Part shown: in pieces, positions 4,658 to 33,488 of the stretch | Position numbering within the stretch: the stretch's first letter is position 1 | How the letters are laid out: each line of letters starts with the position of its first letter | IMG/VR virus record: IMGVR_UViG_3300029650_000167 | Direction: 5' to 3' (one strand) | Origin: a virus | Lineage: Duplodnaviria > Heunggongvirae > Uroviricota > Caudoviricetes | Length of the DNA: 38,587 nt | Translations under genes and position numbers: made by a program | The notes under the pieces: model-generated | Databases searched by the model: none | Told to the model about the DNA's origin: nothing | The model's input: the letters and a program-made list of their open reading frames with translations, nothing else

Positions 4658-4678
4658 TTATTGCATGGAGAAGATAAG

Positions 4679-4936: not shown

Positions 4937-4967
4937 GGTTTGCAATTACCAAGTGGAGTGCTTATAT

Positions 4968-4982: not shown

Positions 4983-5062
4983 ATTTACATCGCACTCCTC
5001 TTGTGCCATAGTAATCAGGCACTGGCAAAATCCAGTGCCGGGATTGGCGTCCCGAGTTACTA

Positions 5063-5085
5063 AGTGGCGCATACCACGCCAGACG
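5063..5085 (+). terminator. rho-independent terminator-like hairpin
   Basis: Stem ACCACG/CGTGGT with 5-nt loop followed by seven T. Confidence 0.45.
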
Positions 5086-5251
5086 TGGTTTTTTTATGCG
5101 TTAAGCACAGCTATATCCGAATTATGGTGGGCTGGGCAGGGGTCCGAAAGGACGCCGGTACCACTTAGGCCGGTACGCCAACCTTGTCCAGTTCACCACC
5201 AGTAATTGGCGTTGCGGTGGTGATTAAAATCACTAAGTGGAGATAACCACC

Positions 5252-19058: not shown

Positions 19059-19496
19059 TTAACCAGTTACTTTTGAGCGGATCGGATACGGCGTATTGGC
19101 ATCAACATCAAGACTGATACCAGCAGTGAATTCGCCAGCCGTTAGTGGGCCAGTTGCGACGGAGTAGTTAACACGCAGATATCGCTGAACACCGGCAGGC
19201 ACCTTTGCAGAAACAACTCGTTTACCTGCTGTCAGGGTAGCCTTTGCCAGTGCGCCACTATCATAAATAGTGGACCATGAGCTGTTATTCTCACTCGTCT
19301 GCAACTGGATGTTTACAGTTGCCTCACCACTTGCCGTGGCGGCTTCGTTAACCAGCACCCAAAACTCAAGCGGATAACCCACGCCGATATCGCGACGGTT
19401 TCCATCAATTGGACCGAGATCGATTACGTCAGTAGAAGCCGCGGTATTCGTAACCGCCTGAGCTTCGGAGAACATCAACAGTTTGTCGGTGATCAT
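19059..19496 (-). CDS. capsid decoration/auxiliary protein (putative)
   Basis: 145 aa, Thr/Ser/Ala-rich beta-like sequence directly after the major capsid gene; SD GGAG. Confidence 0.4.
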   Translation of the reverse strand: MITDKLLMFSEAQAVTNTAASTDVIDLGPIDGNRRDIGVGYPLEFWVLVNEAATASGEATVNIQLQTSENNSSWSTIYDSGALAKATLTAGKRVVSAKVPAGVQRYLRVNYSVATGPLTAGEFTAGISLDVDANTPYPIRSKVTG

Positions 19497-19511
19497 CTTC
19501 TTTCTCCATTA

Positions 19512-19531
19512 GTGGGTCTGTTACGACCCAC
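19512..19531 (-). other. intergenic stem-loop after major capsid gene
   Basis: GTGGGTC-N6-GACCCAC 7-bp stem between capsid stop and the next RBS. Confidence 0.35.
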
Positions 19532-19547
19532 AGGTTAATAACAGGCG

Positions 19548-20540
19548 TTACACCACGCGGGCTTCTGTTTCCAGAAGCGCATCAGTTTCACGGATTGGTA
19601 CACCACGGAATGACGTCCACCACTCGCCTTCAGTCTCTTTTACGCTAATCGCCAGAGATGTTTTCTCCAGAGACTGCAAATCAAGAGCCTGGCCTACAGT
19701 GCGGTTCATGTAGAACACCGGGCGACCCATGCCACGGTTTGGAATGCGATGCAGTGCTTTAACCATCAACTTCGCAATATTTGCGGCAGAGGAAGGTTCT
19801 GAAAGATTGCTGACATCGATGTTTGCAATGCGAACAACATAACGCCAGTCACGCAGAGCAAGTCCGTTGTCCCATTTGTAATGGGTACGGTAGCCTTCGT
19901 ACTTGCCGCCATTAGCATCTTCCAGTGTCACCTGGCCTTTATCTTCCATCTGAATGCCAGCCTTCTGCCCTTTCGGGAAGATGCCATGCACGGTGTTTTC
20001 GCCCCACACCACTAACCAGATTGAGGTGTTATCTGTACCCGTGCCACCAGCATCAATGATGTTCTGAGCATTACCTGCAGACAGGCTGGAATAGCGGGAG
20101 GACAGTCCCATAAACTGCTGAGGGTTAACGCTGGAATCACCATAAAACAGCGTCTGCGCCATCTGCTGATTCATCGCTTCAATAAATGCGCGGTCTTCAG
20201 ACAGGCGGAATTCGGCGGTATTGCCGTTCAGATCAGCCAGTGACTTATCGACTTCAGCATAGGTTTCCAGCATGCCAACGGAATCGGTTACCTGCACTGT
20301 GGTTGATTTGCTTGGCTGTACGCCATAGTTCAGCAAACGCCAGGTAGCTGAAGGTAAACCAGAACGAATGGTGGTTCGGTGTCCGGTAGGAAGGTTCCCT
20401 TCGACAAAAGGCATATCCTGAAGGATCGGGTTAGTTTGACCGAGAAGCTCGATAATCTTATCGACTTTCCCGTTTGGATCGACGCGCTTACCCCAGTCAG
20501 CCAGCGTTAGCGCAGTTAAGCCTTTAACAGCCATTGTCAT
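19548..20540 (-). CDS. major capsid protein
   Basis: 330 aa, directly after the scaffold gene and before decoration-like genes; size and position typical of a podovirus major capsid protein. Confidence 0.7.
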   Translation of the reverse strand: MTMAVKGLTALTLADWGKRVDPNGKVDKIIELLGQTNPILQDMPFVEGNLPTGHRTTIRSGLPSATWRLLNYGVQPSKSTTVQVTDSVGMLETYAEVDKSLADLNGNTAEFRLSEDRAFIEAMNQQMAQTLFYGDSSVNPQQFMGLSSRYSSLSAGNAQNIIDAGGTGTDNTSIWLVVWGENTVHGIFPKGQKAGIQMEDKGQVTLEDANGGKYEGYRTHYKWDNGLALRDWRYVVRIANIDVSNLSEPSSAANIAKLMVKALHRIPNRGMGRPVFYMNRTVGQALDLQSLEKTSLAISVKETEGEWWTSFRGVPIRETDALLETEARVV

Positions 20541-20548
20541 TTCCTCTC

Positions 20549-21244
20549 TTAGTTGCCATAGAGCACTTCGGCCGCACTACGCTGGCCTTCATTACCACCG
20601 GTGACCATGCCATCTTCAGACATCGCCTTTCCGATTTTCACGAACGTTTTGACCAGATCAGGGTGATTACCCAGCCCGGTGGTGTTCAGATATTCTTTGA
20701 GTTCAGGTGTCCCGAACTGGTCAAGCGCACGCTGTGCGGCGCTAAGGTTAGAAATCAACTTGTCGCCACCGATTTCTTTGTCAGCTTTTACATCCGCAGC
20801 CCACTGCTCGGTTGTTTTCTGCCAGGCTTCTACCTGGCGCTGCTGAACACCTGCCAGAATCTTCGGATAAGCATCAACCAGCTTTTGCGCTTGCTCGTTG
20901 GTCAGGTTTAGTTCTCGCGCCACCGGCTCGAATTCCTTCAACGCTTCTGTATCCAGCTCTACGCCTTCGGCAGCCTGAAACTCGTACTTCTCAGGCGCAC
21001 CCTCTGGTTTATCGCCGTCCTTTTTTTCATCCTGCTTATCGTTTTCAGGATTTTTGTCATCAGCAGGTTTATCGCCATCAGCAACAGGTTGTGACTTATC
21101 ACCTTCCGGTTGTGATGGATCACCAACTGGAGCATGGTTATCACCTGCAGGCGCTGACGGTTCTGACGCAGCCGGAGCTGCTCCACCATCGACTGGTTGC
21201 TCATTGCAAAGACGGCGATACAGCAAACGCTCAAATAAATTCAT
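20549..21244 (-). CDS. scaffolding protein
   Basis: About 231 aa from ATG 21244 with SD AGGAG; highly acidic low-complexity N-terminal half (Asp/Glu/Lys/Pro-rich), helical C-terminal half. Confidence 0.55.
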   Translation of the reverse strand: MNLFERLLYRRLCNEQPVDGGAAPAASEPSAPAGDNHAPVGDPSQPEGDKSQPVADGDKPADDKNPENDKQDEKKDGDKPEGAPEKYEFQAAEGVELDTEALKEFEPVARELNLTNEQAQKLVDAYPKILAGVQQRQVEAWQKTTEQWAADVKADKEIGGDKLISNLSAAQRALDQFGTPELKEYLNTTGLGNHPDLVKTFVKIGKAMSEDGMVTGGNEGQRSAAEVLYGN

Positions 21245-21246
21245 GA

Positions 21247-21543
21247 TCACTCCTGTTCACTGGCCTCTTTGGCCATCTTCAAATACTGTTCAGGGCAATG
21301 CGCCATAACGCGCTGAAACAGTTCCAGCGCCAGATTGCGTTGCCCCTCATTAAATGCCATTGCCATAGCGTCCATCGGTGAGATAGCGGAAAACACACGG
21401 CCTTTCTCCAGCACCGACCAGACAACGCGACGCCCCTGTTCACTGCTCATGACAAAGCGAATGTCATCAATTTCACGCTGCGCCATGTCACGTTGCTTAC
21501 GGGCGTTTTCTTCTTTCAGTTGATCGTCTTCGTAATCTGTCAT
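21247..21543 (-). CDS. hypothetical head-morphogenesis protein
   Basis: 98 aa, ATGA-coupled to the portal stop. Confidence 0.4.
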   Translation of the reverse strand: MTDYEDDQLKEENARKQRDMAQREIDDIRFVMSSEQGRRVVWSVLEKGRVFSAISPMDAMAMAFNEGQRNLALELFQRVMAHCPEQYLKMAKEASEQE

Positions 21544-23219
21544 TGTGATTGCCCACCCTGACCACTAACTGCATTCGCCATAGCTGACAACACACTCGGA
21601 TCCGAAGTTTTAGCTTCGCTTAGCGTCTTGGCCCCCTGTGCCGCCGCCATCCCCATCGCCATCATTTGTTGCTGCTGTTGTTGCTGTGCCCGTTGCTGGC
21701 GAGCCTGCTCAACCTGTTCCTGCGGAACAATGACGGTTGGAGACACTCCGGACATATCAGCGAATGCATCGATCGCCTGATCAACATTGAGTTTGTCGAG
21801 AGCTTCTGGTTTCGCTTGCGCAAGTTGACCAATGAAGTTGACCGTAGACGCCAGACTGGACAGGCCGATAGACTTCTGCGCCTGAGCCATGACAGAAATG
21901 TATTCGACCTTCAGGGGCATACCTTCCATCGCGTCAGGCGGTGGCGGCAGCATGTTTTTACGCACCATCATCGAGAAAGCGCGGTCAATGAGAGGATTAA
22001 GACATTCGTCGTTCAGACGCTCCAGAACCGGCCCCAACATCAGAAGTTTTTCTTCTTTCATTTCGATCACCGCTTCAACAGGCATCGAGCGGGTATTGAT
22101 GTTCTGCAACATCATGAACAGATCGACAAAGTAGGCGCTGTTAATGATTTGGCGGGTGTCCTGAATGTCTGCTACCAGATCTGCTGTACTGGGGTTAACC
22201 AGATAAGCAGGCCTGAAACCATCCTGACCAGTAATCTGATCGATATACGTGATGTCGCCAGGAAGAAGGGAGGCGCGCTGATTCTTGAGGGAAGTCGGAG
22301 CAACCATCGGCGGATTGGTGGCTTTATCAATCAACTGCGACTTGCGCTTCTGGAGAAGCTGCAATGCCTTAACAGGTCCAAGCGCCAGCATACCCGGGCA
22401 TGATGATCCATAAACATCTTCGCCGTTAACTTCCCAGCGCGGAGCCATAATTGGAAACTCATCGAATCCGGACTCACGCAACAACTTGTCGTTATCGCCA
22501 CCAACCTCGTAATAAACCGATTTGAATGGCTTGTTCTTGCTATCCAGCTTCGATGTATCGCGGTCAATGTTCGGGTAAACCGAATGCATCACTTCAATCC
22601 ACTTCTCGTAGGTGCCGCTTTCCCACATGCTTTTTACGGATTCGCTGACGTTATTTAGCCCGAACTCCTGAACAAGCTGACGAACAGTCATAGAGAACTT
22701 GCGAAAACAGGTGTCCACACTGCCACGAGGTGAGTTAGCTAGGTAGTAACTGCCTATCGGGAATGGCATTGTGCGAATGATGTCCTCGTCATCCTCCAGC
22801 ACTGCCATTGCACCAGTGCTGTATGTGCCGAGGCTTCCGTATAACTGCGGCAGAGACTGATAGAGATTCGACTTATTGAACATATCGTTCATGCGGTTCT
22901 GCACCGCCTCAAGCCACAACTTAACAGGGCCATAATCCATCATTTCAGGATCTGGCGTAGCCAGGCGAAACCACGGACGCGCGGGGCTTGTGATGCCTGA
23001 CATCATGCCGCTGGCGAGAGTGCGCGCCGCCATAGTCCCGGTCGAATCAATAATGCGTGTATTGCGTCGATCGTTACGGTTGACCTCAGAAGTCAGAAAG
23101 CGGGAACCACGTGGGTTGATGTAATCACTCAACTCGCGCCAGTGCGGCTCGAACGACTGACGCTCGCTTTCAAGTTGTGCGAACTGTTTGTTCAATCGCT
23201 CTTTAGTTGTTTCCGCCAT
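21540..23219 (-). CDS. portal protein
   Basis: 559 aa directly downstream of terminase in the late operon; Gln-rich C-terminal tail. Confidence 0.7.
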   Translation of the reverse strand: MAETTKERLNKQFAQLESERQSFEPHWRELSDYINPRGSRFLTSEVNRNDRRNTRIIDSTGTMAARTLASGMMSGITSPARPWFRLATPDPEMMDYGPVKLWLEAVQNRMNDMFNKSNLYQSLPQLYGSLGTYSTGAMAVLEDDEDIIRTMPFPIGSYYLANSPRGSVDTCFRKFSMTVRQLVQEFGLNNVSESVKSMWESGTYEKWIEVMHSVYPNIDRDTSKLDSKNKPFKSVYYEVGGDNDKLLRESGFDEFPIMAPRWEVNGEDVYGSSCPGMLALGPVKALQLLQKRKSQLIDKATNPPMVAPTSLKNQRASLLPGDITYIDQITGQDGFRPAYLVNPSTADLVADIQDTRQIINSAYFVDLFMMLQNINTRSMPVEAVIEMKEEKLLMLGPVLERLNDECLNPLIDRAFSMMVRKNMLPPPPDAMEGMPLKVEYISVMAQAQKSIGLSSLASTVNFIGQLAQAKPEALDKLNVDQAIDAFADMSGVSPTVIVPQEQVEQARQQRAQQQQQQQMMAMGMAAAQGAKTLSEAKTSDPSVLSAMANAVSGQGGQSQ

Positions 23220-23233
23220 TTCAATGACTCCGG

Positions 23234-23440
23234 TTACTGACCAAGCAGCGTTTTACCGCTGGTCTTAGCGGTTGATGTGTCGCCCTGAGAACCGGTAAGC
23301 AGCGTAGAACTACGACCAGCAGCAGCGCGACGGCGACGAGTTTCTTCGTCGCGGGCATCAACAACGGCGGCATCCTGCTCCTGTGGTGCTGCCTGAACTT
23401 CTGGTGTTGCAGGCACTGATGGTGAGCTACCCATGCACAT
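23234..23440 (-). CDS. small Ser/Thr/Ala-rich protein upstream of portal
   Basis: 68 aa with SD GGAG 8 nt upstream; low complexity. Confidence 0.3.
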   Translation of the reverse strand: MCMGSSPSVPATPEVQAAPQEQDAAVVDARDEETRRRRAAAGRSSTLLTGSQGDTSTAKTSGKTLLGQ

Positions 23441-23508
23441 ATCAATGACTCCGTACGCAATTAAATTATTACCAATTTAACCATATATGATTTATTTATC
23501 GTAGATAG

Positions 23509-23545
23509 TTGACATTTAACGCGCGAATTATTACCTTTCAGGTAA
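23509..23545 (+). promoter_or_regulatory. promoter (-35 TTGACA) with overlapping operator palindrome TTACC-TTTCA-GGTAA
   Basis: Consensus TTGACA at 23509-23514, 16 bp later the perfect operator motif (23531-23545) occupies the -10/+1 region; points toward the tRNA. Confidence 0.5.
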
Positions 23546-23867
23546 CTAAAGAGTTCATTCCGGTTACTAACCTGACTGGCCTGTCGTTAAATTGAACAGG
23601 TGGAGTGAGCTTTTATTTTGAGCAGTACGGCGTATGGCACATGCGACGATAGCGGTCTGGATACGTTTAAGTGGCACCCTCCCTTGCTCGGGCAAACGAA
23701 CCAGGTAGCCGGAATGTGCAAGTCGAGCGGTTTTATTCCGCGCACGGGGATTCACCATCCCGGCGATTCGGTGTGACGCCTCGGAAGAGACGAGGGTACA
23801 ACGATGAGAGCATTTATGGAGCCGCGACAAAGTGTGGCGCCTTAACAGGCTAAGTGCTCTCAGCGTT

Positions 23868-23944
23868 GTGGCATTAGCTCAGTTGGACAGAGCAACCGCC
23901 TTCTAAGCGGTTGGTCGCAGGTTCGAATCCTGCATGCCACGCCA
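23868..23944 (+). tRNA. tRNA-Arg (anticodon UCU, reads AGA)
   Basis: Hand-folded cloverleaf: acceptor GTGGCAT/ATGCCAC, D-arm GCTC/GAGC, anticodon stem ACCGC/GCGGT with loop CTTCTAA, T-arm GCAGG-TTCGAAT-CCTGC, discriminator G and encoded CCA. Confidence 0.85.
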
Positions 23945-23987
23945 GAATCACGCCTAAGGACCGTGATACCAGAAGTTCCAGGTGCTT

Positions 23988-24029
23988 GGCGGTGATAGTT
24001 TCCCTTGAAGGACTATCACCGCCCTTTTT
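23988..24029 (+). terminator. rho-independent terminator after tRNA
   Basis: 12-bp stem GGCGGTGATAGT/ACTATCACCGCC followed by CTTTTT. Confidence 0.75.
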
Positions 24030-24107
24030 ACAGCAGGACGCCATTGCGATGACTTCATGCTGTAAACCCGTACAGCCACGGAAGGCATAACTCATTGCTT
24101 CCAGTTC

Positions 24108-24131
24108 GCCCGGTTCGCCGGGCATTTTTTT
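24108..24131 (+). terminator. second rho-independent terminator/attenuator
   Basis: GCCCGG-TTCG-CCGGGC hairpin followed by seven T, ending 11 nt before the SD of ORF 24143. Confidence 0.65.
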
Positions 24132-24142
24132 AAGGTGAGATC

Positions 24143-24562
24143 ATGAAGACAATTGATATGTTGGCTAAGTATCTAAATGAATGGCCATTAAAATATTCTC
24201 GTATCGTTCAGGCTGAAGACTGCATTTTTTATGGCGTTTTTGCTGATAATGAAATGCATTACGAAGTAATTCAGAGTGAGGGACTGGCCGGGTTAACTCT
24301 TAGCGAAGACCATGGTACTAGCGTTACGTTCCATGACTGGATAACAGCACAACGTTCTGAAATGGAAAAAGGCGATGTGTTTGATATTTCTCGCGCTGTT
24401 TACGCTAAAGCAAAAAGTGATAATGATTACATGAGCGAACACTTATACAACATGAAGTTACAATGCCTGCATGCGGCGCTTATTCAGAATGGGCACTTCG
24501 ATAAAACAAGTGCCATCAATATTGCGGAAGCCATCAACGCTGGATTTAATGCCATTAAATAA
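24143..24562 (+). CDS. hypothetical protein, AT-rich orphan moron
   Basis: 139 aa with SD AAGGTGAG; opposite orientation to flanking terminase/portal genes; low GC. Confidence 0.5.
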   Translation: MKTIDMLAKYLNEWPLKYSRIVQAEDCIFYGVFADNEMHYEVIQSEGLAGLTLSEDHGTSVTFHDWITAQRSEMEKGDVFDISRAVYAKAKSDNDYMSEHLYNMKLQCLHAALIQNGHFDKTSAINIAEAINAGFNAIK

Positions 24563-24566
24563 CACC

Positions 24567-24578
24567 GTGACATGTCAC
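24567..24578. other. perfect 12-bp palindrome GTGACATGTCAC (copy 2 of 3)
   Basis: 5 nt after the stop of ORF 24143-24562 and before its terminator. Confidence 0.5.
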
Positions 24579-24582
24579 AAAC

Positions 24583-24609
24583 AGCCAGCCGATGAGCTGG
24601 CTTTGTTTT
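24583..24609 (+). terminator. rho-independent terminator
   Basis: AGCCAGC-N6-GCTGGCT hairpin followed by TTGTTTT. Confidence 0.65.
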
Positions 24610-24652
24610 ATCCTCATCAGAGGATATCAACGACATTATCCCCACCAGCGGA

Positions 24653-26128
24653 TTAAGCATAGGGATCGTAATCTGTGATGGCCTTGCCTTGCTGGTTCTG
24701 CTGCCCGGGAATTCGCAGACGCTTCGACACAGGGAAAGCAAACGTCAGCAGTAGCGCATCGCCTTTACCCGGCGAACGCCCAAGTCGTTCTTTGATATCT
24801 TCCTTCGGTTCGATAACGATTTTACCGTCCACGCGAACTTTGTACTCTGCCGCCGACAGATCGTCCGCTGTTTCCTGGTCATCCAGCATCCCGCCCAACC
24901 TCAGCCATGTCTTGCATGAGTTGAACATCTCCCCGCGCTTGTTGAGCATCTGAGGGTCAGTTGACGCACCACCGAACGGAACAAGTTGCCATGTGCGCCC
25001 CCAGCCGTCACCGATTGACTTCAGACCGGTTCCGTAACCGAAGTCGATGAACACCGCGTCAGCCTGATACTGGTCTTCAAAGTCAGCGATACGCTTCGCC
25101 ATAATCAGATCGTCAGTGGTCTTGTTGCCAGTCCATAGCACCTTACTATGCAACCCCTGCCGCAGGTATATCACCGCGTCATCAACGCCTGAATATGCCG
25201 GGTCAACACCGATTATCACCGGAGCATGAGCCACCTGCGCAGCGGTTACCACCCGTTTCATTGCCTCATCAGTAAGACCGGTAGGGATAAACTGCAATTC
25301 AGATGCATCAGGGAATATGCCGCGCACACGGATTTTAACGAAGTCGCTGTCTTCCCCGTAGTCATCAACCCATTTCTGCAACTGCTGTTTGTTAGTACCT
25401 TCCACCGTCCGGCTGTCAATCTGCGCAGTTTTCCAGCGGTGTTTGTATTTGCGGAAACATTCGCGAAAACGCCCGGTATTACGTGTAGGGTTTCCGAACG
25501 CCACCCAGATAATCTCAGTGTCTTCGTCCGTAAGCGCACCCTCAGCAACTTCCCACACCAGATCCGCAATGTTCGACGCTTCATCGAATACCACGATGAT
25601 GCGTTTGCGCTCGTTGTGTAGTCCGGCGAATGCCTCAGTGTTGTGCTCAGACCAGGGGATTGCGTCAGCTCGCCACCGCTTGTCGTGCCCAGGATCATTG
25701 CTGTACATCGCGGTAGCGGTACAGGTAAACCAGTCTTTCGTGATGGCAAGGTTCGACCACTTGATAATTTCCGGCCAGGTCTTCGTTCGTAGCTGGTTGT
25801 CGGTGTTGGCGGTCACCACAACCTTACAATCCTCGCAAGTGGACATGCCCCAGTTGATCAGCATTGAGATGAATGCGGATTTACCAATACCATGACCAGA
25901 AGCACGTGCCAGCATAAGCGGCTGATAGCGCGTCTCTGGATTCTGCAGGTGATCACGTATCTCTCGGAACGCATCAGCCTGCCACTTACGTGGACCGGTG
26001 GCATGTGCTAATTCAGTCCCCTCTTCCCCCCACGGGAACGCATAGAGGGCATAGCCAAGCGGATCGTGAGTGAACCCTGCAATATCCTCGATCAACTGCT
26101 CTTCAGGAGATAACGCTGTATCTGTCAC
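24653..26128 (-). CDS. terminase large subunit
   Basis: 491 aa with Walker A-like GHGIGKS near the N-terminus and acidic nuclease-like C-terminal region; GTG start overlapping the small-subunit stop. Confidence 0.85.
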   Translation of the reverse strand: MTDTALSPEEQLIEDIAGFTHDPLGYALYAFPWGEEGTELAHATGPRKWQADAFREIRDHLQNPETRYQPLMLARASGHGIGKSAFISMLINWGMSTCEDCKVVVTANTDNQLRTKTWPEIIKWSNLAITKDWFTCTATAMYSNDPGHDKRWRADAIPWSEHNTEAFAGLHNERKRIIVVFDEASNIADLVWEVAEGALTDEDTEIIWVAFGNPTRNTGRFRECFRKYKHRWKTAQIDSRTVEGTNKQQLQKWVDDYGEDSDFVKIRVRGIFPDASELQFIPTGLTDEAMKRVVTAAQVAHAPVIIGVDPAYSGVDDAVIYLRQGLHSKVLWTGNKTTDDLIMAKRIADFEDQYQADAVFIDFGYGTGLKSIGDGWGRTWQLVPFGGASTDPQMLNKRGEMFNSCKTWLRLGGMLDDQETADDLSAAEYKVRVDGKIVIEPKEDIKERLGRSPGKGDALLLTFAFPVSKRLRIPGQQNQQGKAITDYDPYA

Positions 26129-26721
26129 TGATTACCATCCTGACGTTCTTTGAGTCGCTTCCTGGCTGCTGCTATGCGATCAGCAATTGTCACATTCACA
26201 TTAACATCCAGACGTTCTTTGAACGCGTTGACATCAACATGCTTACCAATCAGTTCTAGGTTCTTCACCTTGTCAGGCCATTTAATTTTTTTGAGGATTG
26301 TCTCTATCGAATCCTCGTTCATGTTCATGATGGTCGATGACAGATCAAAGCCACTAAGCGTAGTGCGCCAGATTTTCGGCCACTCACGGATTGGTTTAAG
26401 GCTCCCATCGTCGTTGAGGATGTCGATCACGTCCATCTGGTCGATCTCCACCAGGCGCATGAGAACGTAATCAGCACTGACGCGCATTCGTTTGTTGCGC
26501 TCCTCCATCAACTCGGCAATCCGTTTTTGAATGCGTTCATCGCGCATCATGACGCTGGCTTTAACTGCCGCTGTATTTGGGGAGAATCCTGCGTTAATCG
26601 CAGCCTGAGTCTGGTTTTCAGGCGTTTTGATGTATGACTGGCAATAAGCCTCCTGCATTGCTGTGAGCGGCTTAAATTGCGTTGATTTGCGTTTATAGGT
26701 TTTAGGTTCAGCAGGCATCAT
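26125..26721 (-). CDS. terminase small subunit
   Basis: About 198 aa from ATG 26721 (SD GGTGG); basic N-terminal region; the track ORF start at 26799 would translate the operator and terminator region. Confidence 0.6.
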   Translation of the reverse strand: MMPAEPKTYKRKSTQFKPLTAMQEAYCQSYIKTPENQTQAAINAGFSPNTAAVKASVMMRDERIQKRIAELMEERNKRMRVSADYVLMRLVEIDQMDVIDILNDDGSLKPIREWPKIWRTTLSGFDLSSTIMNMNEDSIETILKKIKWPDKVKNLELIGKHVDVNAFKERLDVNVNVTIADRIAAARKRLKERQDGNQ

Positions 26722-26738
26722 AACCACCGTGGTAATTG

Positions 26739-26753
26739 TTACCGTTGTGGTAA
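26739..26753. promoter_or_regulatory. operator-like palindrome TTACC-GTTGT-GGTAA upstream of terS
   Basis: Perfect motif 18 bp upstream of the terS start, flanked by additional GGTAA/TACC half-sites. Confidence 0.5.
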
Positions 26754-26760
26754 TAATACC

Positions 26761-26790
26761 ATGCAAAATAAAGCCGCCATAGTTGGCGGC
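26761..26790 (-). terminator. rho-independent terminator between early-left operon and late operon
   Basis: On the minus strand GCCGCC-AACTAT-GGCGGC followed by TTTATTTTG. Confidence 0.55.
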
Positions 26791-26831
26791 AGTATTCAAA
26801 CCCCATCAAATTCATCATGCATAATCTACTC

Positions 26832-26843
26832 GTGACATGTCAC
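26832..26843. other. perfect 12-bp palindrome GTGACATGTCAC (copy 3 of 3)
   Basis: Overlaps the TGA stop of ORF 26840-27181, about 90 bp upstream of the late operon. Confidence 0.5.
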
Positions 26844-27181
26844 ACTATTAATTTCGTTTCATGCCAGCCTTTAGTCACCCAGCATTGCGAGTCACCATCA
26901 CACGGGCATGAATTCACAGGAACTCTCTCGCCGCACTTACCGCAACGTTTTCTGCTGATCGATTTTATACGCCCGTGCACGCGTGCATCATCCTGGCGGA
27001 TCAGTAACGCTATATACTCACCAAATTCGTAAGGCGCACGCCCGGGGCGACGCGTGGCACAGTTACGCTCCAGCATTTCAATTTCCTGAGCATCAAGCAC
27101 AATTTCCAGCTTACGCACACCAGATGCAGCTTGTCTGGCTCTCTGAGCGGCTTTGCGCTCTGCTGCTGATTTAGCCATCAA
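26840..27181 (-). CDS. zinc-ribbon protein at the Q-equivalent position (candidate late regulator)
   Basis: 113 aa, basic N-terminus, C-terminal CGKCGERVPVNSCPCDG cysteine cluster; last gene before the terminator and terS. Confidence 0.4.
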   Translation of the reverse strand: MMAKSAAERKAAQRARQAASGVRKLEIVLDAQEIEMLERNCATRRPGRAPYEFGEYIALLIRQDDARVHGRIKSISRKRCGKCGERVPVNSCPCDGDSQCWVTKGWHETKLIV

Positions 27182-27452
27182 TATTCACCTTTATCGCGAA
27201 CACCTTTACCGGTTTATCTCCGAAGTGCGGATGTGTGATTGTCTTGATTTCATACCCTTCATACGGGACGTCTATTCTGCGACTGGAGTCGTCGCGCTTC
27301 GGATATCCCTTTGTGATAATCAGGCGGTCATATTCCCGGAACATGATTCGCTTATTCCAGTAGTCATTACACAAGCGATACTCTTCCGTTTTCTCCCCGC
27401 GAATCATGGCATCGAAGTATTCACCTTTGACGGCAAGTTGCAGGTTAGCCAT
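27171..27452 (-). CDS. small beta-barrel protein (ASCH/DUF3850-like)
   Basis: 93 aa; pattern KGEYFDAM..GEKTEEYR resembles ASCH-like phage proteins; recalled from memory, not searched. Confidence 0.4.
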   Translation of the reverse strand: MANLQLAVKGEYFDAMIRGEKTEEYRLCNDYWNKRIMFREYDRLIITKGYPKRDDSSRRIDVPYEGYEIKTITHPHFGDKPVKVFAIKVNIDG

Positions 27453-27732
27453 TACCTTCCTCCTTTGGCTTGTGAATTTGTATCGTCATGCCGCTTTGAG
27501 TGGTGACTACAACGACAGAACCAGGCTGAAGACTGTTAAGATTGAATGCTTCGTAAAACGAAGCCAAGGCCAGCGCTTTTTTATTCTTTCGGTTCCACCA
27601 ACGCCATCCATTGCTACAGGCTACACTGACAATCCACTGTCCACTCCTGTAAGCCATATAAAACCAGATGAGCAAAACCTGAATGAATGCTATCCAGTCA
27701 ATAATCGTATATTTCGCGAAGGAGACCATCAA
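27445..27732 (-). CDS. hypothetical membrane-anchored protein
   Basis: 95 aa with one N-terminal hydrophobic segment. Confidence 0.4.
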   Translation of the reverse strand: MMVSFAKYTIIDWIAFIQVLLIWFYMAYRSGQWIVSVACSNGWRWWNRKNKKALALASFYEAFNLNSLQPGSVVVVTTQSGMTIQIHKPKEEGNG

Positions 27733-28457
27733 TTAACCTCCTGCGGCGGTTCTGGTAGAGGCATCCAGTGAGTTACATGTGCCCCGTAATGATTCCAGAA
27801 CGACGCAACTGGCGCACTGTCTCCATCAGGGACAACCCAGTAATCGTGATGAACTTTATTATTAAGCCCATCAAACACCAGATACTCTTTACAACTTCCG
27901 GGAATGTTCTCAGGCATTCGCTCACTACAGCTTATCCAACCATCCGGAGTTACCGGAAGCGAGAACGGCAGCACATCTCTGTGAACAAGTTTTTGCTGTG
28001 ACAGGTTATCCAGAACTTTCTGTACTGCTGCATCACCGAATACACCAAGCGCATCTGCCATAACTCCTACAACCTGATAAGCCTCAGCGCATACCGTGGA
28101 TAAACCATCCGGAATTACCGGAGAGTTGCCATTTACATCGAAGTTTGGCTCTGCGTCCTGAACCAGGAGGATGTAACCATTCTTGGCTGTATCAAGTTCT
28201 AACGCCTCGGTGACGGTGCCGAAATAGCGATTACCTAAATCAGCATCACAAGTGCTTACATCAATGGAAACTTCCATGCCCTCGATTAATTCTGGCAAGT
28301 TGTAAGTTTGGCTTACAGGCTCTGCTTCCAGCGATGCCAGAGCAATCCGTGCCAGTTCTTCCGCTTCTTCTGCTGGCAGTACAACGTTGCTACCAGGTCC
28401 GTATGTTTCGCGCCACTGCTTGATTGTCAGTAGTCGCTCTTTGGTTATAGTGGTCAT
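27729..28457 (-). CDS. hypothetical protein with DUF551-like C-terminal region
   Basis: 242 aa; C-terminal Trp/Pro-rich segment ending WMPLPEPP typical of a conserved enterobacterial prophage domain. Confidence 0.45.
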   Translation of the reverse strand: MTTITKERLLTIKQWRETYGPGSNVVLPAEEAEELARIALASLEAEPVSQTYNLPELIEGMEVSIDVSTCDADLGNRYFGTVTEALELDTAKNGYILLVQDAEPNFDVNGNSPVIPDGLSTVCAEAYQVVGVMADALGVFGDAAVQKVLDNLSQQKLVHRDVLPFSLPVTPDGWISCSERMPENIPGSCKEYLVFDGLNNKVHHDYWVVPDGDSAPVASFWNHYGAHVTHWMPLPEPPQEVN

Positions 28458-28969
28458 GCCGCGTTTCCTTCTTTCTTATTAACAATTACACCGTCATATA
28501 TTTCATTAAGGTGCCCTCTCAACTCCATGCGCCTTAATGCAGATAACATGTAATCGCATTCAACCTGCTTATTTCCAGTAAATGGCTTATCGTCAGGATT
28601 ACCCCAACAGCAATTACCCTTGGGCCACCCATGTACTTTCCGTACTCTTCCGTTAACAACGTGAAGTAATCCCCAGCCAGGTGGTAAATCCTCAATTGAA
28701 ATAATTCCCGGCTCACTAATAAAGAATCGCCAGTCGCCCATTCCAAGAGACGGATTTTTACGAAAACGCTTTTTTCTATCTGCTAACAAGTCAGCACGAG
28801 AACACTTCGCTTCTATCAGGCATGATGCTGAATTTCTGAATCCCATAGCATCTGGCTGTTCTCCGGTACTGGTTACAGCTATAAAGCGGTCATGAAAACA
28901 AACCTTGAACCCGTTGCGCTTAAGGAACTTGTACGCAATCTGACAGAGTTCGCGGTGTGTTAACGCCAT
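28454..28969 (-). CDS. putative PD-(D/E)xK-fold nuclease
   Basis: About 172 aa from ATG 28969 (MALTHREL); motifs QPDAMGF and LIEAKCS at the spacing expected for the D...ExK catalytic core. Confidence 0.4.
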   Translation of the reverse strand: MALTHRELCQIAYKFLKRNGFKVCFHDRFIAVTSTGEQPDAMGFRNSASCLIEAKCSRADLLADRKKRFRKNPSLGMGDWRFFISEPGIISIEDLPPGWGLLHVVNGRVRKVHGWPKGNCCWGNPDDKPFTGNKQVECDYMLSALRRMELRGHLNEIYDGVIVNKKEGNAA

Positions 28970-28970
28970 A

Positions 28971-29531
28971 TCACTCTCCTTTGATGCGAATGCCAGTGGC
29001 GCGTGGCACATTAACTTCCACGATGCGCACTGTTGGTTTGTACATCTCAATTGCTGTCAGCCAGTCAGCGCCGGTCATGCGCTTTTCCGCATCGCCATTA
29101 GTCCACTGAACCGGTACACCAATAGCCTTCATCGCGATTTCTATTTCCCCGGCAATGGCGCTTTTTCCGCAACCAGTAAAACCAGAAACAACGACAAGAA
29201 CTTCGCCTTTGGCTGGTTTTATTTCCCGTGCTTCCAGTTCTGCAATGCGCTTTTTTGCTGCTTCCAGCTCGTCCAGCAGTGTCAGCACGGTAGCCGGATT
29301 GGCTGCGGCGATGAATTCAGCATTGGCCTGCTGTTCCATTTGGAAATCTTCATCGAAACCGCTTTCAGGATGCGCTCCTTCAATTCTGCAAATGGGAAGA
29401 TATCCAACAACTTCACGATGAATTAGCGCATCACCAGCATCAAATCTCTCCTCTCCATATTCGAGCGACCACTCACCACACGTTGCTTTCTCTGCTGCCT
29501 CACGCAGAGCCTGATAGTTAATCTCGCTCAC
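28971..29531 (-). CDS. Ead/Ea22-like early protein
   Basis: 186 aa beginning MSEINYQALREAAEKAT..GEW, the characteristic N-terminus of lambdoid Ead/Ea22 proteins; GTG start overlapping the upstream stop. Confidence 0.5.
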   Translation of the reverse strand: MSEINYQALREAAEKATCGEWSLEYGEERFDAGDALIHREVVGYLPICRIEGAHPESGFDEDFQMEQQANAEFIAAANPATVLTLLDELEAAKKRIAELEAREIKPAKGEVLVVVSGFTGCGKSAIAGEIEIAMKAIGVPVQWTNGDAEKRMTGADWLTAIEMYKPTVRIVEVNVPRATGIRIKGE

Positions 29532-30049
29532 TGGTTGCCTCCTTTGCGAAGCTGGGCAGCAAAGTCAACTAACCACTCAGTCATTTCAACCTTCCCTACC
29601 AAGTCTGAACCAGGGTGCATACAGCAATCACTCTGCGCCGCTTTGAAATCCTTATACTCATATTCTTGGGCCACCAGATTTTTTGCAGCTTCTATAGCAG
29701 CATCCACCCCCTGCGCCCGCACTTCAGACAGGAAAGCATCGGTGTCTGTGGTTTCGATATCGTTAATTTCAGGAAGAATCTCTTCCCATGTAGCGATATC
29801 GCCATTCAAATGCCATCCGGCAATTCCACTGGAGTTATCCGCAACACTGCGAACAGCTTCAATAGTTTCATGCATTGCCGCATTCTCCGCCGCCAGCGCA
29901 TTAGCACGCGCCAGTTGCACTTCCAGTTGCGTTGCCAAATCGCTGATCAGCTTTGCCACACTGCGCATATCAACGGCACCACATTCTGCTTTCAGTTCCG
30001 AAGCCATCTCATGCCCGGCGGCAACTAACCATTTGATATTACTTTCCAT
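29528..30049 (-). CDS. hypothetical early protein with coiled-coil
   Basis: 173 aa, SD GAGGG 5 nt upstream. Confidence 0.45.
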   Translation of the reverse strand: MESNIKWLVAAGHEMASELKAECGAVDMRSVAKLISDLATQLEVQLARANALAAENAAMHETIEAVRSVADNSSGIAGWHLNGDIATWEEILPEINDIETTDTDAFLSEVRAQGVDAAIEAAKNLVAQEYEYKDFKAAQSDCCMHPGSDLVGKVEMTEWLVDFAAQLRKGGNQ

Positions 30050-30110
30050 CTTTACCCTCGCTTATCCACATAACTTATTGATAACATTGATAACTAAAAA
30101 GATCGTCGAT

Positions 30111-30455
30111 TCAGAACTCTTCGATGTTCCAGCCACCACCTGCTTTCTTTGGTTTAACCGTTACCCCGATGATTCGGAACGGATACTGATCTGCGGCGAC
30201 TTTGGTTTTCACTCTGGCGTCGTCGGTCCAGAAACCTTTCACTTCGTGCAGTTCCATCTCGCCGGTGGCGAGCATCACAGCAAAATCGGGCGTATAGAAC
30301 GTGTTGTCAGCTAACCGCAGCTTGATACCCTCGAATCGATACCAGGCGATTTCCCCTGCACGTTTACGCTGCTCAAGGTGCTGGCAATACGCAGATTCTG
30401 TTTTGTTCATCTGACCTGTTTTGAGTCGACCAAGAGCCTGTATCTGTTTTCTCAT
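30111..30455 (-). CDS. DUF1064-like protein (putative PD-(D/E)xK recombination nuclease)
   Basis: 114 aa with pattern YTPDF...GE.E.HEVKG...K.K....YP; first gene of the nin-like operon. Confidence 0.45.
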   Translation of the reverse strand: MRKQIQALGRLKTGQMNKTESAYCQHLEQRKRAGEIAWYRFEGIKLRLADNTFYTPDFAVMLATGEMELHEVKGFWTDDARVKTKVAADQYPFRIIGVTVKPKKAGGGWNIEEF

Positions 30456-30458
30456 GAT

Positions 30459-30473
30459 TTACCTCTGAGGTAA
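30459..30473. promoter_or_regulatory. operator-like palindrome TTACC-TCTGA-GGTAA
   Basis: Perfect motif overlapping the 5' UTR and SD of gene 30111-30455. Confidence 0.5.
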
Positions 30474-30520
30474 TTAAAAACCACATAAGACACGAAATCA
30501 ATAGATTTTAGAATATTTTA

Positions 30521-30535
30521 TTACCTAACAGGTAA
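30521..30535. promoter_or_regulatory. operator-like palindrome TTACC-TAACA-GGTAA inside a promoter spacer
   Basis: On the minus strand TCGACA - operator - TAAAAT, so the palindrome fills the 16-bp spacer between -35 and -10. Confidence 0.6.
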
Positions 30536-30572
30536 TTGTCGAGGCGTAAAAAAATGCGCTATCGCGCTGGTA

Positions 30573-31373
30573 TTACTTGATAAATCCTGCCGCCTTTCCC
30601 CGCCTGTATTCCTCCATCAGCCACTGCGCCGGTGTTATTCCCCCAAGGGTGGCGGCGTTAGGCATGCACCCGAAACTTCGCCCTGGTGGATGGTAAACGT
30701 CTCTCCCTGTGTCCGGAGGCGTACTCATGGGCTCTGGCTTTGCCTGTATGCTGATCACCGGATCGGGTATCTGCTGTCCGGAAGCCACCTTTTTCGCCCA
30801 ATCATCGAGCAGCCTGCGTGCGTGTTTCTCAACCTCAATCTCGCTAAGCTGGCGCTGATACATTGCACGGCGGGTATCACATACGACCCAGTACATAACC
30901 GGATGTCGCCACGGGAATCTTTCGGGACCACCAGGATATAAACTTTTTTCCTTGCTGTACCGGTGAAACTCCGCCATCACATCGTCAATGGTGACGCCAA
31001 GAACCATCTTGCTGTCTTTGCACCACTTGATAAATTGCCCTGGAGACGGCCAGAACGGAGATTCACTGGCGCGGGCGTGGCGCATACCAGCAGAAACCTG
31101 TTCACGGGTTCGGATCCCCCCTTCGGCAAACGCAGCAATCCACTGCTGTTTTGCAGCAACTTCCTGCTCTGGCGTCTTCAGGTTGGTTACCACTGCCGCC
31201 GGAAACAGTTGTTTCAGCTGTTTAAAAAGGGCATCAACAAGCCTCTCTGCTGACATGTTCACCACATTGTCATTGTTGACGTACTGATGCTCATAACCTG
31301 ACATGCGAGAAAGGGCTTCTCCGTCACGGTTTTGTATCGCGGTAAAAACGTTGTTCACAAGAAATCCTCCCAT
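30573..31373 (-). CDS. replication protein P-like (helicase loader)
   Basis: 266 aa; QWIAAFAEGGIRTREQVSAGMRHARASESPFWPSPGQFIKWCKD aligns with lambda P QWVLAFRENGITTMEQVNAGMRVARRQNRPFLPSPGQFVAWCRE (recalled). Confidence 0.75.
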   Translation of the reverse strand: MGGFLVNNVFTAIQNRDGEALSRMSGYEHQYVNNDNVVNMSAERLVDALFKQLKQLFPAAVVTNLKTPEQEVAAKQQWIAAFAEGGIRTREQVSAGMRHARASESPFWPSPGQFIKWCKDSKMVLGVTIDDVMAEFHRYSKEKSLYPGGPERFPWRHPVMYWVVCDTRRAMYQRQLSEIEVEKHARRLLDDWAKKVASGQQIPDPVISIQAKPEPMSTPPDTGRDVYHPPGRSFGCMPNAATLGGITPAQWLMEEYRRGKAAGFIK

Positions 31374-32152
31374 GCTTCAGGGCTGTTCCAGTGCGGAACG
31401 TTGTTATCAGGTAATGTTGATTGCTTCTGTCTGCTAATCTGCAGCCGCCTTGCCAGCTTCTGCTCCCACTGTGCCTGATGGTATGCCTTACCCTCAGCCA
31501 TCCAGTAAATTCTGAACTCTGCAAGTTCCTGTGCCGTTGGCAGACTGTCCAGGTAGATCCCCTGCAATGAGCTTTTCCGAAGAAAGTCATCTGATGGCTG
31601 CCATTGTTCATGCATGACAAATTTGCCTAATTGCCCTGGCCCACCAGGAGGAACAAAGTTATTCATCACGGCGTTGTTTGCTCCGGGGTCATGAGGCACA
31701 GAATCCCCGCTTTTTGTCCTGCTCTCCCTCTCTTGGTTAAATGACTGGTTATATGACTGGTTCTGGATCCCGTTTTTGGGATCATTCAACATCCCGTTTT
31801 TGGGATCATTCAACATCCCGTTTTTGGGTATATTCCCGTTTTCGGGTTCATTGCCCCCCTCCCGGTTGCCTTTAATGTTCCCGTTTTTGGTTATATTAAG
31901 AGAGAAAACCCGCACTCTTTTTGTCGCTCCCTTTCTCTCTCCGGTATCTGAAATAAGCCCCATTTTCATGAGCGATATAAGCCCGGCCTGCACGGTTTTT
32001 TTATTCAGGCAAGTGTCTTTAACGAGGCGTTCTATGCTGGGGTAGCAGAGGTTATATTCATCGGCTCTGTCAGCCATCGAGAGCAGTATGAGCTTTAATG
32101 ATGAGCTACCTGGATCTGTCTCCCAGGCCCAATCTGTTGCATGTCTGCTCAT
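31355..32152 (-). CDS. replication initiator (O-like) with N-terminal winged-HTH and internal origin repeats
   Basis: 265 aa; N-terminal DWAWE...LKLILLSMADRADE...CYPSIERL HTH; central repeats PKNGMLNDPKNG encoded by iterons; SD GGAG. Confidence 0.7.
   Translation of the reverse strand: MSRHATDWAWETDPGSSSLKLILLSMADRADEYNLCYPSIERLVKDTCLNKKTVQAGLISLMKMGLISDTGERKGATKRVRVFSLNITKNGNIKGNREGGNEPENGNIPKNGMLNDPKNGMLNDPKNGIQNQSYNQSFNQERESRTKSGDSVPHDPGANNAVMNNFVPPGGPGQLGKFVMHEQWQPSDDFLRKSSLQGIYLDSLPTAQELAEFRIYWMAEGKAYHQAQWEQKLARRLQISRQKQSTLPDNNVPHWNSPEAWEDFL
31768..31890. repeat. origin iterons, five copies of TCCCGTTTTTGGG-like repeat
   Basis: Copies at 31768, 31792, 31816 (24-bp period), 31834 and 31879; each is an imperfect inverted repeat; located inside the O-like gene. 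Confidence 0.65.
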
Positions 32153-32903: not shown

Positions 32904-33488
32904 ATGAAAAGTATCCAGGACGTCCGCAGGCAAAATCTCAACGACTTGATCGACCGTGAATTCAATGGTGTTCAGACGCGGATGGCTGAAAAACTTGGAA
33001 CTCAGGCAAATCTGGTAAACCGCTGGGCTCTTGGCAAGAAGGTTATCGGCGACCAGGTTGCACGAAAAATTGAAGCTGCCGCCAATAAACCCCGTAACTG
33101 GCTTGATATCGATCGCTCGCTTTCTCAGGAAGGTTTTCAGCCTGTCGGCCCAAGCGACATTGGCCAGCTGGCGGCTCACAACCTGGAACGCTGGATGAGC
33201 GAAAGCCGCGACCTTTCAACACAGGGAAAACTTCACCGCGCATCCGGCGTAGCCCAGGTGACAATCAGCCGCCTGTTAAACAATGAGGTCAGCGTTTCCA
33301 TTTCCACCCTGGAGAATGTTGCATCCGCATTCGGGCGTCACGGCTATGAATTACTGATTCACCCGCACGACCCTGCGACCATCAACTATGATCGCTCGCG
33401 CTACGCATTGTTACCCGAAACCGAGAAAGCAAAGATCGAAAGTTACATTGAATTTGTCATCAACCAGAACGAAAAAAACAAACAATAA
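32904..33488 (+). CDS. prophage repressor with tandem XRE-type HTH domains, no peptidase domain
   Basis: 194 aa; two HTH-like segments (TRMAEKLGTQANLVNRWALGKK and ASGVAQVTISRLLNNEVSVSISTLENVA); no Ser/Lys S24 autocleavage motif; divergent from cro-like gene. Confidence 0.7.
   Translation: MKSIQDVRRQNLNDLIDREFNGVQTRMAEKLGTQANLVNRWALGKKVIGDQVARKIEAAANKPRNWLDIDRSLSQEGFQPVGPSDIGQLAAHNLERWMSESRDLSTQGKLHRASGVAQVTISRLLNNEVSVSISTLENVASAFGRHGYELLIHPHDPATINYDRSRYALLPETEKAKIESYIEFVINQNEKNKQ

Follow-up and report, generated by a model that had tools for sequence, protein, structure and literature searches.

A modular structured RNA family carrying a tRNA-Arg(UCU) cassette behind a predicted repressor-controlled promoter in phiV10-like prophages of Escherichia coli

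The locus

The stretch of DNA analyzed in this study (IMG/VR record IMGVR_UViG_3300029650_000167; 38,587 nucleotides, referred to as the window) is a 38.6-kb phiV10/epsilon15-like (Uetakevirus) prophage of Escherichia coli. Flanked by minus-strand genes, it contains a plus-strand module of a promoter, approximately 320 nucleotides (nt) of non-coding DNA, a tRNA gene, two terminators, the open reading frame (ORF) ORF139, and a third terminator. The section from 23509 to 24030 is read here, with a probability of about 0.55, as a self-contained, repressor-controlled non-coding unit of approximately 485 nt, encoding a multi-domain stable RNA with a captured tRNA-Arg(UCU) as a cassette. The 801 bases around the tRNA region are 97-99% identical to phiV10, phiv142-3, ZX5, TL-2011b, and the O157 typing phages 9 and 10, and identity in the same range was found in prophages of about 500 complete E. 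coli genomes. The following features were assigned to the unit and its 3′ border:

23509-23537, + strand, sigma-70-like promoter: −35 box TTGACA at 23509-23514, 17-nt spacer, −10 box TACCTT at 23532-23537
23529-23545, no strand, predicted repressor operator TATTACCTTTCAGGTAA: inverted repeat TTACC-N5-GGTAA over the −10 box and +1
23546-23625, + strand, 5′ leader of 80 nt, which aligns to epsilon15
23626-23800, + strand, conserved structured RNA core of 175 nt with two pseudoknots
23628-23632 with 23644-23648, + strand, P1, local hairpin
23637-23642 with 23714-23719, + strand, pseudoknot PK1: GCACAU of the P1 loop pairs with AUGUGC about 70 nt downstream
23652-23659 with 23702-23709, + strand, P2, closing a variable apical domain
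23727-23741, + strand, variable hairpin
23747-23750 with 23758-23761, + strand, P3, hairpin GGGAT-TCACC-ATCCC (23747-23761)
23753-23756 with 23770-23773, + strand, pseudoknot PK2: CACC of the P3 loop pairs with GGUG
23779-23783 with 23791-23795, + strand, P4, loop GAAGAGA
23799-23868, + strand, P5, long hairpin CAAC-GAU-GAGAGCA...UGCUCUC-AGC-GUUG the tip is variable, and the final G coincides with tRNA nucleotide +1
23868-23944, + strand, tRNA-Arg, anticodon UCU, CCA encoded; optional cassette at the P5/P6 junction
23947-23967, + strand, P6, hairpin AUCACG-N9-CGUGAU
23988-24029, + strand, terminator T1: hairpin 23988-24023 with a 14-bp stem, followed by a U-run; predicted 3′ end of the RNA gene
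24033-24131, + strand, small RNA (sRNA)-like stretch ending in T2, conserved and common to epsilon15
24108-24123 plus U-run, + strand, terminator T2

The structured core

The core was identified by comparison. The covariance model R1, which was built from 27 sequences aligned with MAFFT, detected a single copy in the window (23626-23800, 134.4 bits, E = 6e-45) and scored 115 to 161 bits on 75 other loci. A model of six helices (P1, PK1, P2, P3, PK2, and P4) was then tested on 74 distinct sequences. In an alignment that was fitted to this model, 97.8% of the cells were paired compared to 89.6% in shuffles, and 12 pairs displayed compensatory changes; the covariation score was 0.240, whereas slid partners yielded at most 0.066. 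The same covariation was obtained with an unfitted alignment generated by MAFFT only. The hairpin GGGAT-TCACC-ATCCC, which an earlier note on this DNA had pointed out, is a real helix (P3) with compensatory changes in the relatives. Dozens of G-U pairs occur in the core on the plus strand, and because they would be A·C mismatches on the opposite strand, the core is read as a plus-strand RNA. The two invariant blocks are not artefacts of the sequence collection (31/32 and 37/43), as 31 of the 32 copies gathered without the invariant 16-mer contain it.

The promoter and the operator

Transcription is predicted to start near A23544/A23545. Both elements from which the earlier note had deduced an operator-gated promoter are present, a TTGACA −35 box at 23509-23514 and an operator copy that overlaps the −10 box and the +1 position at 23529-23545; the −10 box is weak, since TACCTT retains only T1, A2, and T6 of TATAAT (3/6). 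The operator sequence TATTACCTTTCAGGTAA has an identical copy at 4586-4602, and the family TTACC-N5-GGTAA matches the window 23 times versus 0.87 matches expected by chance. In the GenBank record of epsilon15, the homologous 17-mer is annotated as protein_bind 'repressor'. The arrangement TTGAC(A/C)-17 nt-TACCTT inside an operator recurs in other Uetakeviruses (related loci L065, L082, and L139).

The longer form of the operator, ATTACC-N5-GGTAAT, was observed at at least 12 sites of the window (4588, 4968, 6029, 23531, 26739, 30459, 30521, 32449, 32786, 32834, 33546, and 33608). These dispersed operators would constitute a regulon with many operators, comparable to that under the P1 C1 repressor, rather than a single immunity region. 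A promoter of the same build as that at 23509 lies at 33581 (TTGACA-17-AATTAT with an operator), beside the probable repressor gene (ORF 32904-33488).

The leader, the cassette, and the terminators

The 5′ leader looks like a degenerate hairpin module of the P5 type, judging from its resemblance to the module GGCGGAGTGCGCTTCCAGGTG located 5′ of the core in L022 and L139. P5 itself is found 3′ of P4 in most family members and is present in the minimum-free-energy fold of 23790-24032 (z = −5.0 versus shuffled sequence). Its helix is kept with different sequences in the relatives (GAGCGCAC/GUGCGCUC, GAUGGC/GUCAUC, GAGAGUA/UACUCUC), with an upper stem that is compensatory between lineages and a hypervariable tip. 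Consensus folding on artificial constructs of the 5′ strand, GAAA, and the 3′ strand was unsuccessful, the 1-nt register shifts being ungapped, and the support for P5 is therefore taken from the folds of the individual sequences and from the list of variant stems. In L009, L097, and L101, the tips of P5 carry T-arm-like hairpins (CTGGTTCAATTCCAG, GGCGGTTCGATTCCGCC), and the tip in L101 holds what seems to be an entire tRNA in decay; tRNA-like inserts are thus also accepted at another position of the RNA.

P5 is followed by UGG and then by the cassette. In the window, the cassette is a well-formed tRNA-Arg(UCU), as had been claimed: ARAGORN calls Arg (tct) at 23868-23944, and the Rfam model RF00005 scores 73.3 bits (gathering score 29). 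Several relatives already have this tRNA in their annotation. In the family as a whole, tRNA-Arg(UCU) occupies this position in 26 of 149 copies, and 103 of the 149 are without any tRNA within range; in most other copies, the cassette is an element of 85-200 nt. In the best-sampled family of non-tRNA cassettes (120-150 nt), the element is closed by a GUUGUGGUG/CACCACAAC stem, contains D-like and T-like hairpins that are conserved as well as a middle that is interchangeable and hypervariable, and folds as a tRNA-shaped four-way junction. The mEp460 cassette forms an acceptor-like stem of 10 bp in addition to its D-like and T-like hairpins. These elements differ from a tRNA in that the T-like loop is not a canonical T-loop and the CCA end is not encoded. 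P6 is kept after the cassette irrespective of whether the latter is a tRNA, as exemplified by L041, L065, and L107 with non-tRNA cassettes; in L039 the cassette is absent and P6 directly follows P5. The stretch upstream of the tRNA is consequently not a leader private to it, as the earlier note had implied, for the core belongs to a modular family in which the tRNA is optional and the lambdoid and P1/P7 cores occur without tRNA-Arg.

The cassettes are exchanged at sharp inverted-repeat boundaries, GTTGTGG...CCACAAC (for instance at 23865-23871 of the window and at about 2735-2870 of L001). The boundaries form an acceptor-like stem and loosely recall integron core sites (GTTRRRY/RYYYAAC), without matching them; an association of the boundaries with an integrase was not found.

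The two strong terminators described earlier behind the tRNA were confirmed as the terminator-like hairpins 23988-24023 and 24108-24123, each with a T-run after it. Across the family, terminators lie 280-760 nt downstream of the core. Epsilon15 retains the leader and P1; the remainder of its core has been lost, as have P5, the tRNA, and T1. The stretch between T1 and ORF139 (24033-24131) consists of a GGAAG...CTTCC hairpin and T2 and gave a weak RyhB-like match (E = 1.2). The stem of T2 displays a compensatory change between the window and epsilon15. Its U-run adjoins the ribosome-binding site of ORF139, so that transcription of ORF139 is possible only through T2.

Codon usage and the tRNA

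AGA accounts for 2 per 1000 codons in E. coli K-12 (approximately). In this phage it reaches 7.5 per 1000 codons, that is, 12% of the arginine codons. The AGA codons are concentrated in the gene at 2294-4483 (13 codons), in tail genes, and in early genes (several each), whereas not one is present in the head and packaging genes (19059-26799), which extend from the 145-amino acid (aa) ORF at 19059 up to and including the small terminase gene. The tRNA would accordingly matter for a subset of genes only. Phage tRNAs are proposed to serve both in codon supplementation and in the escape from anticodon nucleases (PMC10264068, PMC11555353). The window resembles other phages with tRNA genes in that its tRNA is genuine and reads a codon of low usage in the host. 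Unlike those, the tRNA forms part of a larger conserved RNA and gives way to non-tRNA cassettes in the relatives; the head genes of the window are devoid of AGA, and no nuclease against tRNA-Arg(UCU) was identified.

Distribution and genomic context

BLAST searches with 23540-23870 yielded DNA of approximately 75-83% identity in unrelated phages, almost always in unannotated stretches. The matches include lambdoid phages (mEp460, cdtI, 2H10, Ayreon, Stx2c and Stx2a phages, and mEp390), P1-like phages (P1, P7, D6, SJ46, and RCS47), the Klebsiella phage SopranoGao, and a phage with Stenotrophomonas as its recorded host. The invariant 16-mer occurs in at least 120 contigs of IMG/VR. A scan with one genome per species detected prophages of Kosakonia, Phytobacter, Citrobacter, Klebsiella, Kluyvera, Enterobacter, Erwinia, and others in addition to chance matches. 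Among the 5426 complete E. coli genomes, 1840 contain the 175-nt core, at 2471 places of which 554 are on plasmids; an annotated RefSeq feature under the core was found in none of 40 sampled E. coli matches. Every listed phage record carries one copy, as does the window, and the sole exception seen is the IMG/VR contig L023 with two.

A genome scan with the 5′ motif gave 28 matches, several of them in non-enterobacterial metagenome-assembled genomes (MAGs). By our own estimate from the information content of the pattern, roughly that many chance matches are expected in such a collection. Of seven non-enterobacterial loci scored with R1, three were weak (14-16.5 bits), three did not match, and one, L151, reached about 160 bits. 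L151 is a 1.7-kb contig of a Bacillota MAG (JAIIAN010000430.1) and is probably mis-binned enterobacterial phage DNA.

The position of the core relative to promoters and neighboring genes was compared between lineages. In Uetakeviruses the RNA unit has a constant place behind the TTGAC(A/C)-17-TACCTT promoter inside the operator. In lambdoid phages the core starts 110-170 nt after the stop codon of a cI-like repressor gene, in the same direction. In mEp460, two operators TTGC-N7-GCAA of the OR type overlap a TTGCAT-17-TATCTT promoter 3′ of the cI terminator, and a further operator copy was not found downstream of this promoter. Because the operator-bearing promoter adjoins the RNA and none follows downstream, the RNA of mEp460 is taken to be the first thing transcribed from the early-left promoter. 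In many lineages a promoter lies 5-125 nt upstream of the core, often straight after the terminator of the preceding gene. In P7 the core stands alone between tRNA-Ile and ban in a C1-controlled operon, and in SopranoGao the RNA follows the lysis genes, near the end of the record, with a promoter of its own.

The 3′ side of the core varies and consists of P5 and a cassette, of ban, of a small ORF, or of a bidirectional terminator with a convergent gene, the last of which stands immediately 3′ of the core in L086-type phages. In contig L023 (2791355294_000005, 3995-4959, minus strand), two cores approximately 800 nt apart flank a convergent gene for a homologue of the superinfection-exclusion protein SieB (PF14163, E = 1e-19). 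A co-conserved protein partner was not found; ORF139 and the first gene downstream in mEp460 are unrelated and both of unknown function. From these sequence comparisons, the core is an uncatalogued RNA family that moves as a unit between unrelated temperate phages, always just 3′ of a predicted repressor-controlled early promoter.

Comparison with known RNAs

At the gathering score, the 4227 models of Rfam 15 gave nothing in the leader or the core. At E ≤ 10, one match at chance level lies inside the leader (ZEB2_AS1_2, 23534-23596, 11.4 bits, E = 6.9), the model being one for a long non-coding RNA. Hence, of the tRNA and covariance-model scans recommended in the earlier note, the former confirmed the tRNA and the latter returned no meaningful match in the leader. 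Searches of 15 related loci gave no meaningful Rfam match in the RNA, and among the phage regulatory RNAs of the C4, isrK, and P4 CI type, the models for C4 and isrK matched the window only at 5019-5203 and not in the leader. Neither a description of this structured RNA nor its invariant sequence strings were found in full-text searches of the literature. The catalogue of 10,006 viral csRNAs by Fremin et al. (2023) includes, according to its description, an unnamed entry DNAVirus_2961 that 'only sometimes' overlaps tRNA-Arg. Compared by description only, this entry may overlap part of the RNA family reported here.

A lambda-type nut site was sought 3′ of the core. Of 136 distinct copies, 132, including that of the window, are without a boxA (like GCTCTTTAACAA, at least 10 of 13) in this region. 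Directly 3′ of the core, L086, L043, and L029 have the bidirectional terminator that belongs to a convergent gene, together with a boxA-like GCTCTTTAACAA. The boxA-like sequence in three to four lineages was discounted as a nut site, since it is part of this terminator module.

GOLLD and ROOL RNAs often adjoin tRNA genes, tRNAs are sometimes located inside the GOLLD linker, and the expression of GOLLD rises in the lytic cycle (bioRxiv 10.1101/2024.12.08.627333). The RNA described here shares with them its occurrence in phages and prophages, the multi-domain, pseudoknotted architecture, the association with tRNAs, and the absence of a known protein partner. Its gene accommodates, at an internal junction, either a tRNA or a cassette of tRNA shape and stands behind an operator-covered promoter, from which lytic expression would be predicted. 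Homology to GOLLD or ROOL was not detected with Rfam in the window and the related loci. In contrast to GOLLD and ROOL, the RNA is smaller (about 300-800 nt with a constant core of 175 nt), and its hosts are Enterobacteriaceae, whereas theirs are Lactobacillales and rumen or marine organisms.

A precedent for the control of the promoter is given by the record of P7, in which the tRNA genes of the ban operon are annotated as being under the C1 operator Op(ban). Operator control of a tRNA promoter, called unusual in the earlier note, is therefore not without precedent. The same core is located in this very operon, between tRNA-Ile and ban. In P7, a repressor operator gates the promoter that drives the tRNA genes, and the same is predicted for the window. 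The ban operon differs in that the core lies downstream of its tRNA and is devoid of P5, P6, and terminator, that the tRNAs are Asn, Thr, and Ile instead of Arg, and that protein genes including ban belong to the operon.

In YrlA/Y RNAs and in the tRNA-like structures of plant viruses, a tRNA-like module is joined to another domain. The present RNA is similar to these in the linkage of a pseudoknotted domain to a tRNA or a tRNA-shaped four-way junction, and differs in lacking both an Rfam match and a neighboring Ro/Rsr gene. Altogether, the general kind is that of the large modular phage non-coding RNAs associated with tRNAs, within which this family is new; the tRNA, the epsilon15 operator, and the operator-controlled tRNA genes of P1/P7 were known.

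Proposed function of the unit

In the explanation preferred here, the repressor would silence the unit in the lysogen, and early transcription would set in upon induction or infection. A cut by RNase P between U23867 and G23868 would free the tRNA and leave an RNA of approximately 320 nt comprising the leader, the core, and P5. The tRNA-Arg would help to read AGA codons, and the core would act as RNA on a host component common to Enterobacteriaceae. We infer a host-directed target because no co-conserved phage protein exists and because, from one genus to another, the nucleotides of the core that are unpaired or engaged in pseudoknots hardly vary. The earlier note had envisaged a processed precursor or an sRNA upstream of the tRNA; a distinct RNA 5′ of the tRNA stands, processing would be predicted, and nothing suggests a classical base-pairing sRNA.

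By analogy to GOLLD and ROOL, the core might be a trans-acting early RNA, that is, a scaffold binding proteins or RNA and possibly related to conflict, to which we give slightly less than an even chance. A role in trans is favored because of the unit's own promoter and terminator, the conserved additional domains, the hypervariable periphery and cassette, the exclusion-gene neighbors, and the absence of a phage protein partner. More tentatively, the core could be a riboregulator of a new class that needs no phage protein, either as a large, factor-independent element with a put-like reprogramming of the host RNA polymerase at the start of early operons or as a GOLLD/ROOL-like machine made of RNA only that shows its tRNA or tRNA-shaped cassettes to a host target. 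In the latter form, the target could be, for instance, a tRNA-directed defence nuclease; in the former, the mechanism could be put-like and of independent origin.

Several points weigh against the reading as a stable, repressor-controlled RNA. Promoter activity, cleavage by RNase P, and stability of the RNA are predicted from sequence. The consensus promoter scan of the window made no call at 23509-23537, which is explained by its strict consensus and the 3/6 match of the −10 box. PK1 never varies and is thus supported by conservation alone, and the same applies to parts of P2. Folding of the single core sequence is unremarkable (z = −1.4 for the plus and −2.3 for the minus strand) and uninformative, and the case for the core therefore rests on comparison. 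Compared to its closest relatives, the copy in the window has a G·A mismatch in P1 and a G-to-U exchange in the apical domain. The family was gathered via exact motifs and BLAST, and distant members are under-sampled. Finally, the RNA is accessory and dispensable at least for laboratory growth, because epsilon15, which has lost it, is viable.

Alternative explanations

The best-surviving alternative is a leader acting in cis like the put RNAs of phage HK022, in which the nascent core would make RNA polymerase resistant to termination or promote read-through; we consider this possible rather than probable. The put RNAs comprise about 70 nt with two stem-loops, are present as putL and putR in each genome, and act alone on RNA polymerase, which parallels the absence of a co-conserved protein partner for the core (PMC9378689). 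The core is likewise located just 3′ of a repressor-controlled early promoter in lambdoid phages, with terminators and early genes behind it and no dedicated phage protein. One promoter could then serve the RNA and tRNA as well as the genes past the terminators, namely ORF139, the lambdoid early-left genes, and ban of P1. The core is always promoter-proximal and co-oriented with the downstream genes, with terminators between them, and P1 and P7 keep only the core, alone and approximately 100 nt upstream of ban; this arrangement fits a role in cis at least equally well and counts against a role in trans. On this side of the mEp460 genome, the sole promoter with operators is 5′ of the RNA, and a hairpin terminator of −20.7 kcal/mol stands before the next genes; in the window, two terminators and no promoter separate the RNA from ORF139. 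The near-invariance of unpaired nucleotides across host genera would also suit a contact with RNA polymerase.

On the other hand, no homology of the core to put was detected, as R1 scored at most 3.9 bits over 24000-31000 of the HK022 record, which has no annotation of PL, PR, or put. This section is presumably the place of PL, PR, and the put sites. With 175 nt and two pseudoknots, the core is 2.5 times larger than put and occurs once per genome (L023 excepted) instead of as a pair. P5, P6, and the arms of the cassette are conserved too, for which an element binding the polymerase would have no need. Epsilon15, which is devoid of the core, keeps T2 and gp50, the counterpart of ORF139 (annotated as similar to phiV10 p03). 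In Uetakeviruses, read-through beyond ORF139 would enter the terminase gene in antisense, and the location of the SopranoGao RNA, behind its own promoter after the lysis genes and near the end of the record, counts against this reading as well.

Two further explanations are both very improbable. The stretch could be nothing else than a leader or processing scaffold of the tRNA precursor, conserved by recent common descent. The direct fusion, with P5 ending at tRNA nucleotide +1, and the 97-99% identity of the phiV10-like copies would agree with this; it conflicts with the 103 of 149 copies without a tRNA within range and with the core's compensatory changes at approximately 75-80% identity in lambdoid, P1-like, Klebsiella, and other phages, in which other cassettes, convergent genes, or ban come after the core. 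Alternatively, the structure could act in the late transcript of the minus strand, from terminase to portal, or at the DNA level, as a site of recombination, packaging, or replication. An 'RNaseIII' processing site is annotated on the strand of the late genes in the epsilon15 record, the reverse complement of the core folds as well (z = −2.3), and the cassettes are exchanged at sharp GTTGTGG...CCACAAC boundaries. The epsilon15 site, however, is in the leader and not in the core, which epsilon15 lacks; many G-U and U-G pairs become A·C mismatches on the other strand; the lambdoid and P1 elements are co-oriented with an early operon and not antisense to late genes; and no association with a recombinase or terminase is common to the different contexts.

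Lastly, the minus strand of the region might code for a small protein, which in the window would be that of an 87-aa ORF with a TTG start (23567-23830). Many loci have ORFs of 60-180 aa running across the core, a minus-strand frame free of stops spans it in 44 of 70 sequences, and mEp460_037 is annotated as a hypothetical protein at the equivalent region. As stated in the earlier note, 23546-23867 holds no convincing ORF: it is crossed by short or overlapping ORFs only, and the conserved blocks share no frame. The distances between invariant blocks are spread evenly over the three classes modulo 3 (24/21/23 and 30/22/16), the variable regions of the core take every length from 13 to 46 nt, and the column variability of the core alignment is without 3-periodicity, that is, neither a conserved frame nor codon periodicity was detected. 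For these reasons, the minus-strand ORFs across the core, including that of mEp460, are considered spurious. With substitutions that are compensatory within helices, G-U pairs on the plus strand, and no RefSeq annotation at the 40 sampled E. coli copies, a protein is the least credible of all explanations. The 'hypothetical proteins' mEp460_037 (L001 2443-2811) and the related UTI89_C5094, which lie opposite the strand of the RNA core, are probably annotation artefacts.

Neighboring genes and other features of the window

The remaining features of the plus-strand module and the genes flanking it are the following:

21540-23219, − strand, portal gene
23234-23440, − strand, 68-aa gene
24143-24562, + strand, ORF139, phrog_4846, function unknown; the sole protein gene of the plus-strand module
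24583-24602, + strand, terminator T3, 3′ of ORF139
24653-26128, − strand, large terminase gene

Elsewhere in the window, an isrK RNA (67 bits) and a C4 antisense RNA (66 bits) are arranged in tandem at 5019-5203, just 5′ of a 241-aa ORF (5237-5962), and are accompanied by the operator copies at 4588 and 4968. The region looks like an immI-like (c4-icd-ant) antirepressor control module of the P1 type in a Uetakevirus, and the isrK/C4 pair recurs in the lambdoid loci L001 and L024. The ORF at 31355-32152 contains five direct repeats of about 24 nt (ATCCCGTTTTTGGGATCATTCAAC) at 31767-31897, which look like iterons and probably mark the replication origin inside the initiator gene.

Significance

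Biology has no better-studied system than E. coli and its temperate phages, and yet the RNA is present in 1840 of 5426 complete E. coli genomes, unannotated at all 40 copies sampled, and also lies unannotated in P1 and P7 and in Stx-converting and phiV10-type typing phages. Some phage tRNA genes are to be re-read as exchangeable cassettes within a larger RNA rather than as free-standing genes. Its first transcribed position behind repressor-controlled promoters, together with the easy genetics of these phages, makes the RNA directly testable. If the core acts in cis, it would represent a second, unrelated route to antitermination without a dedicated factor; if it acts in trans, it would be the enterobacterial counterpart of GOLLD and ROOL in a host where their function is tractable. 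Should the core be a novel riboregulator, an unrecognised RNA would take part in the lysis-lysogeny or host-takeover program of prophages in about one-third of E. coli genomes and of P1.

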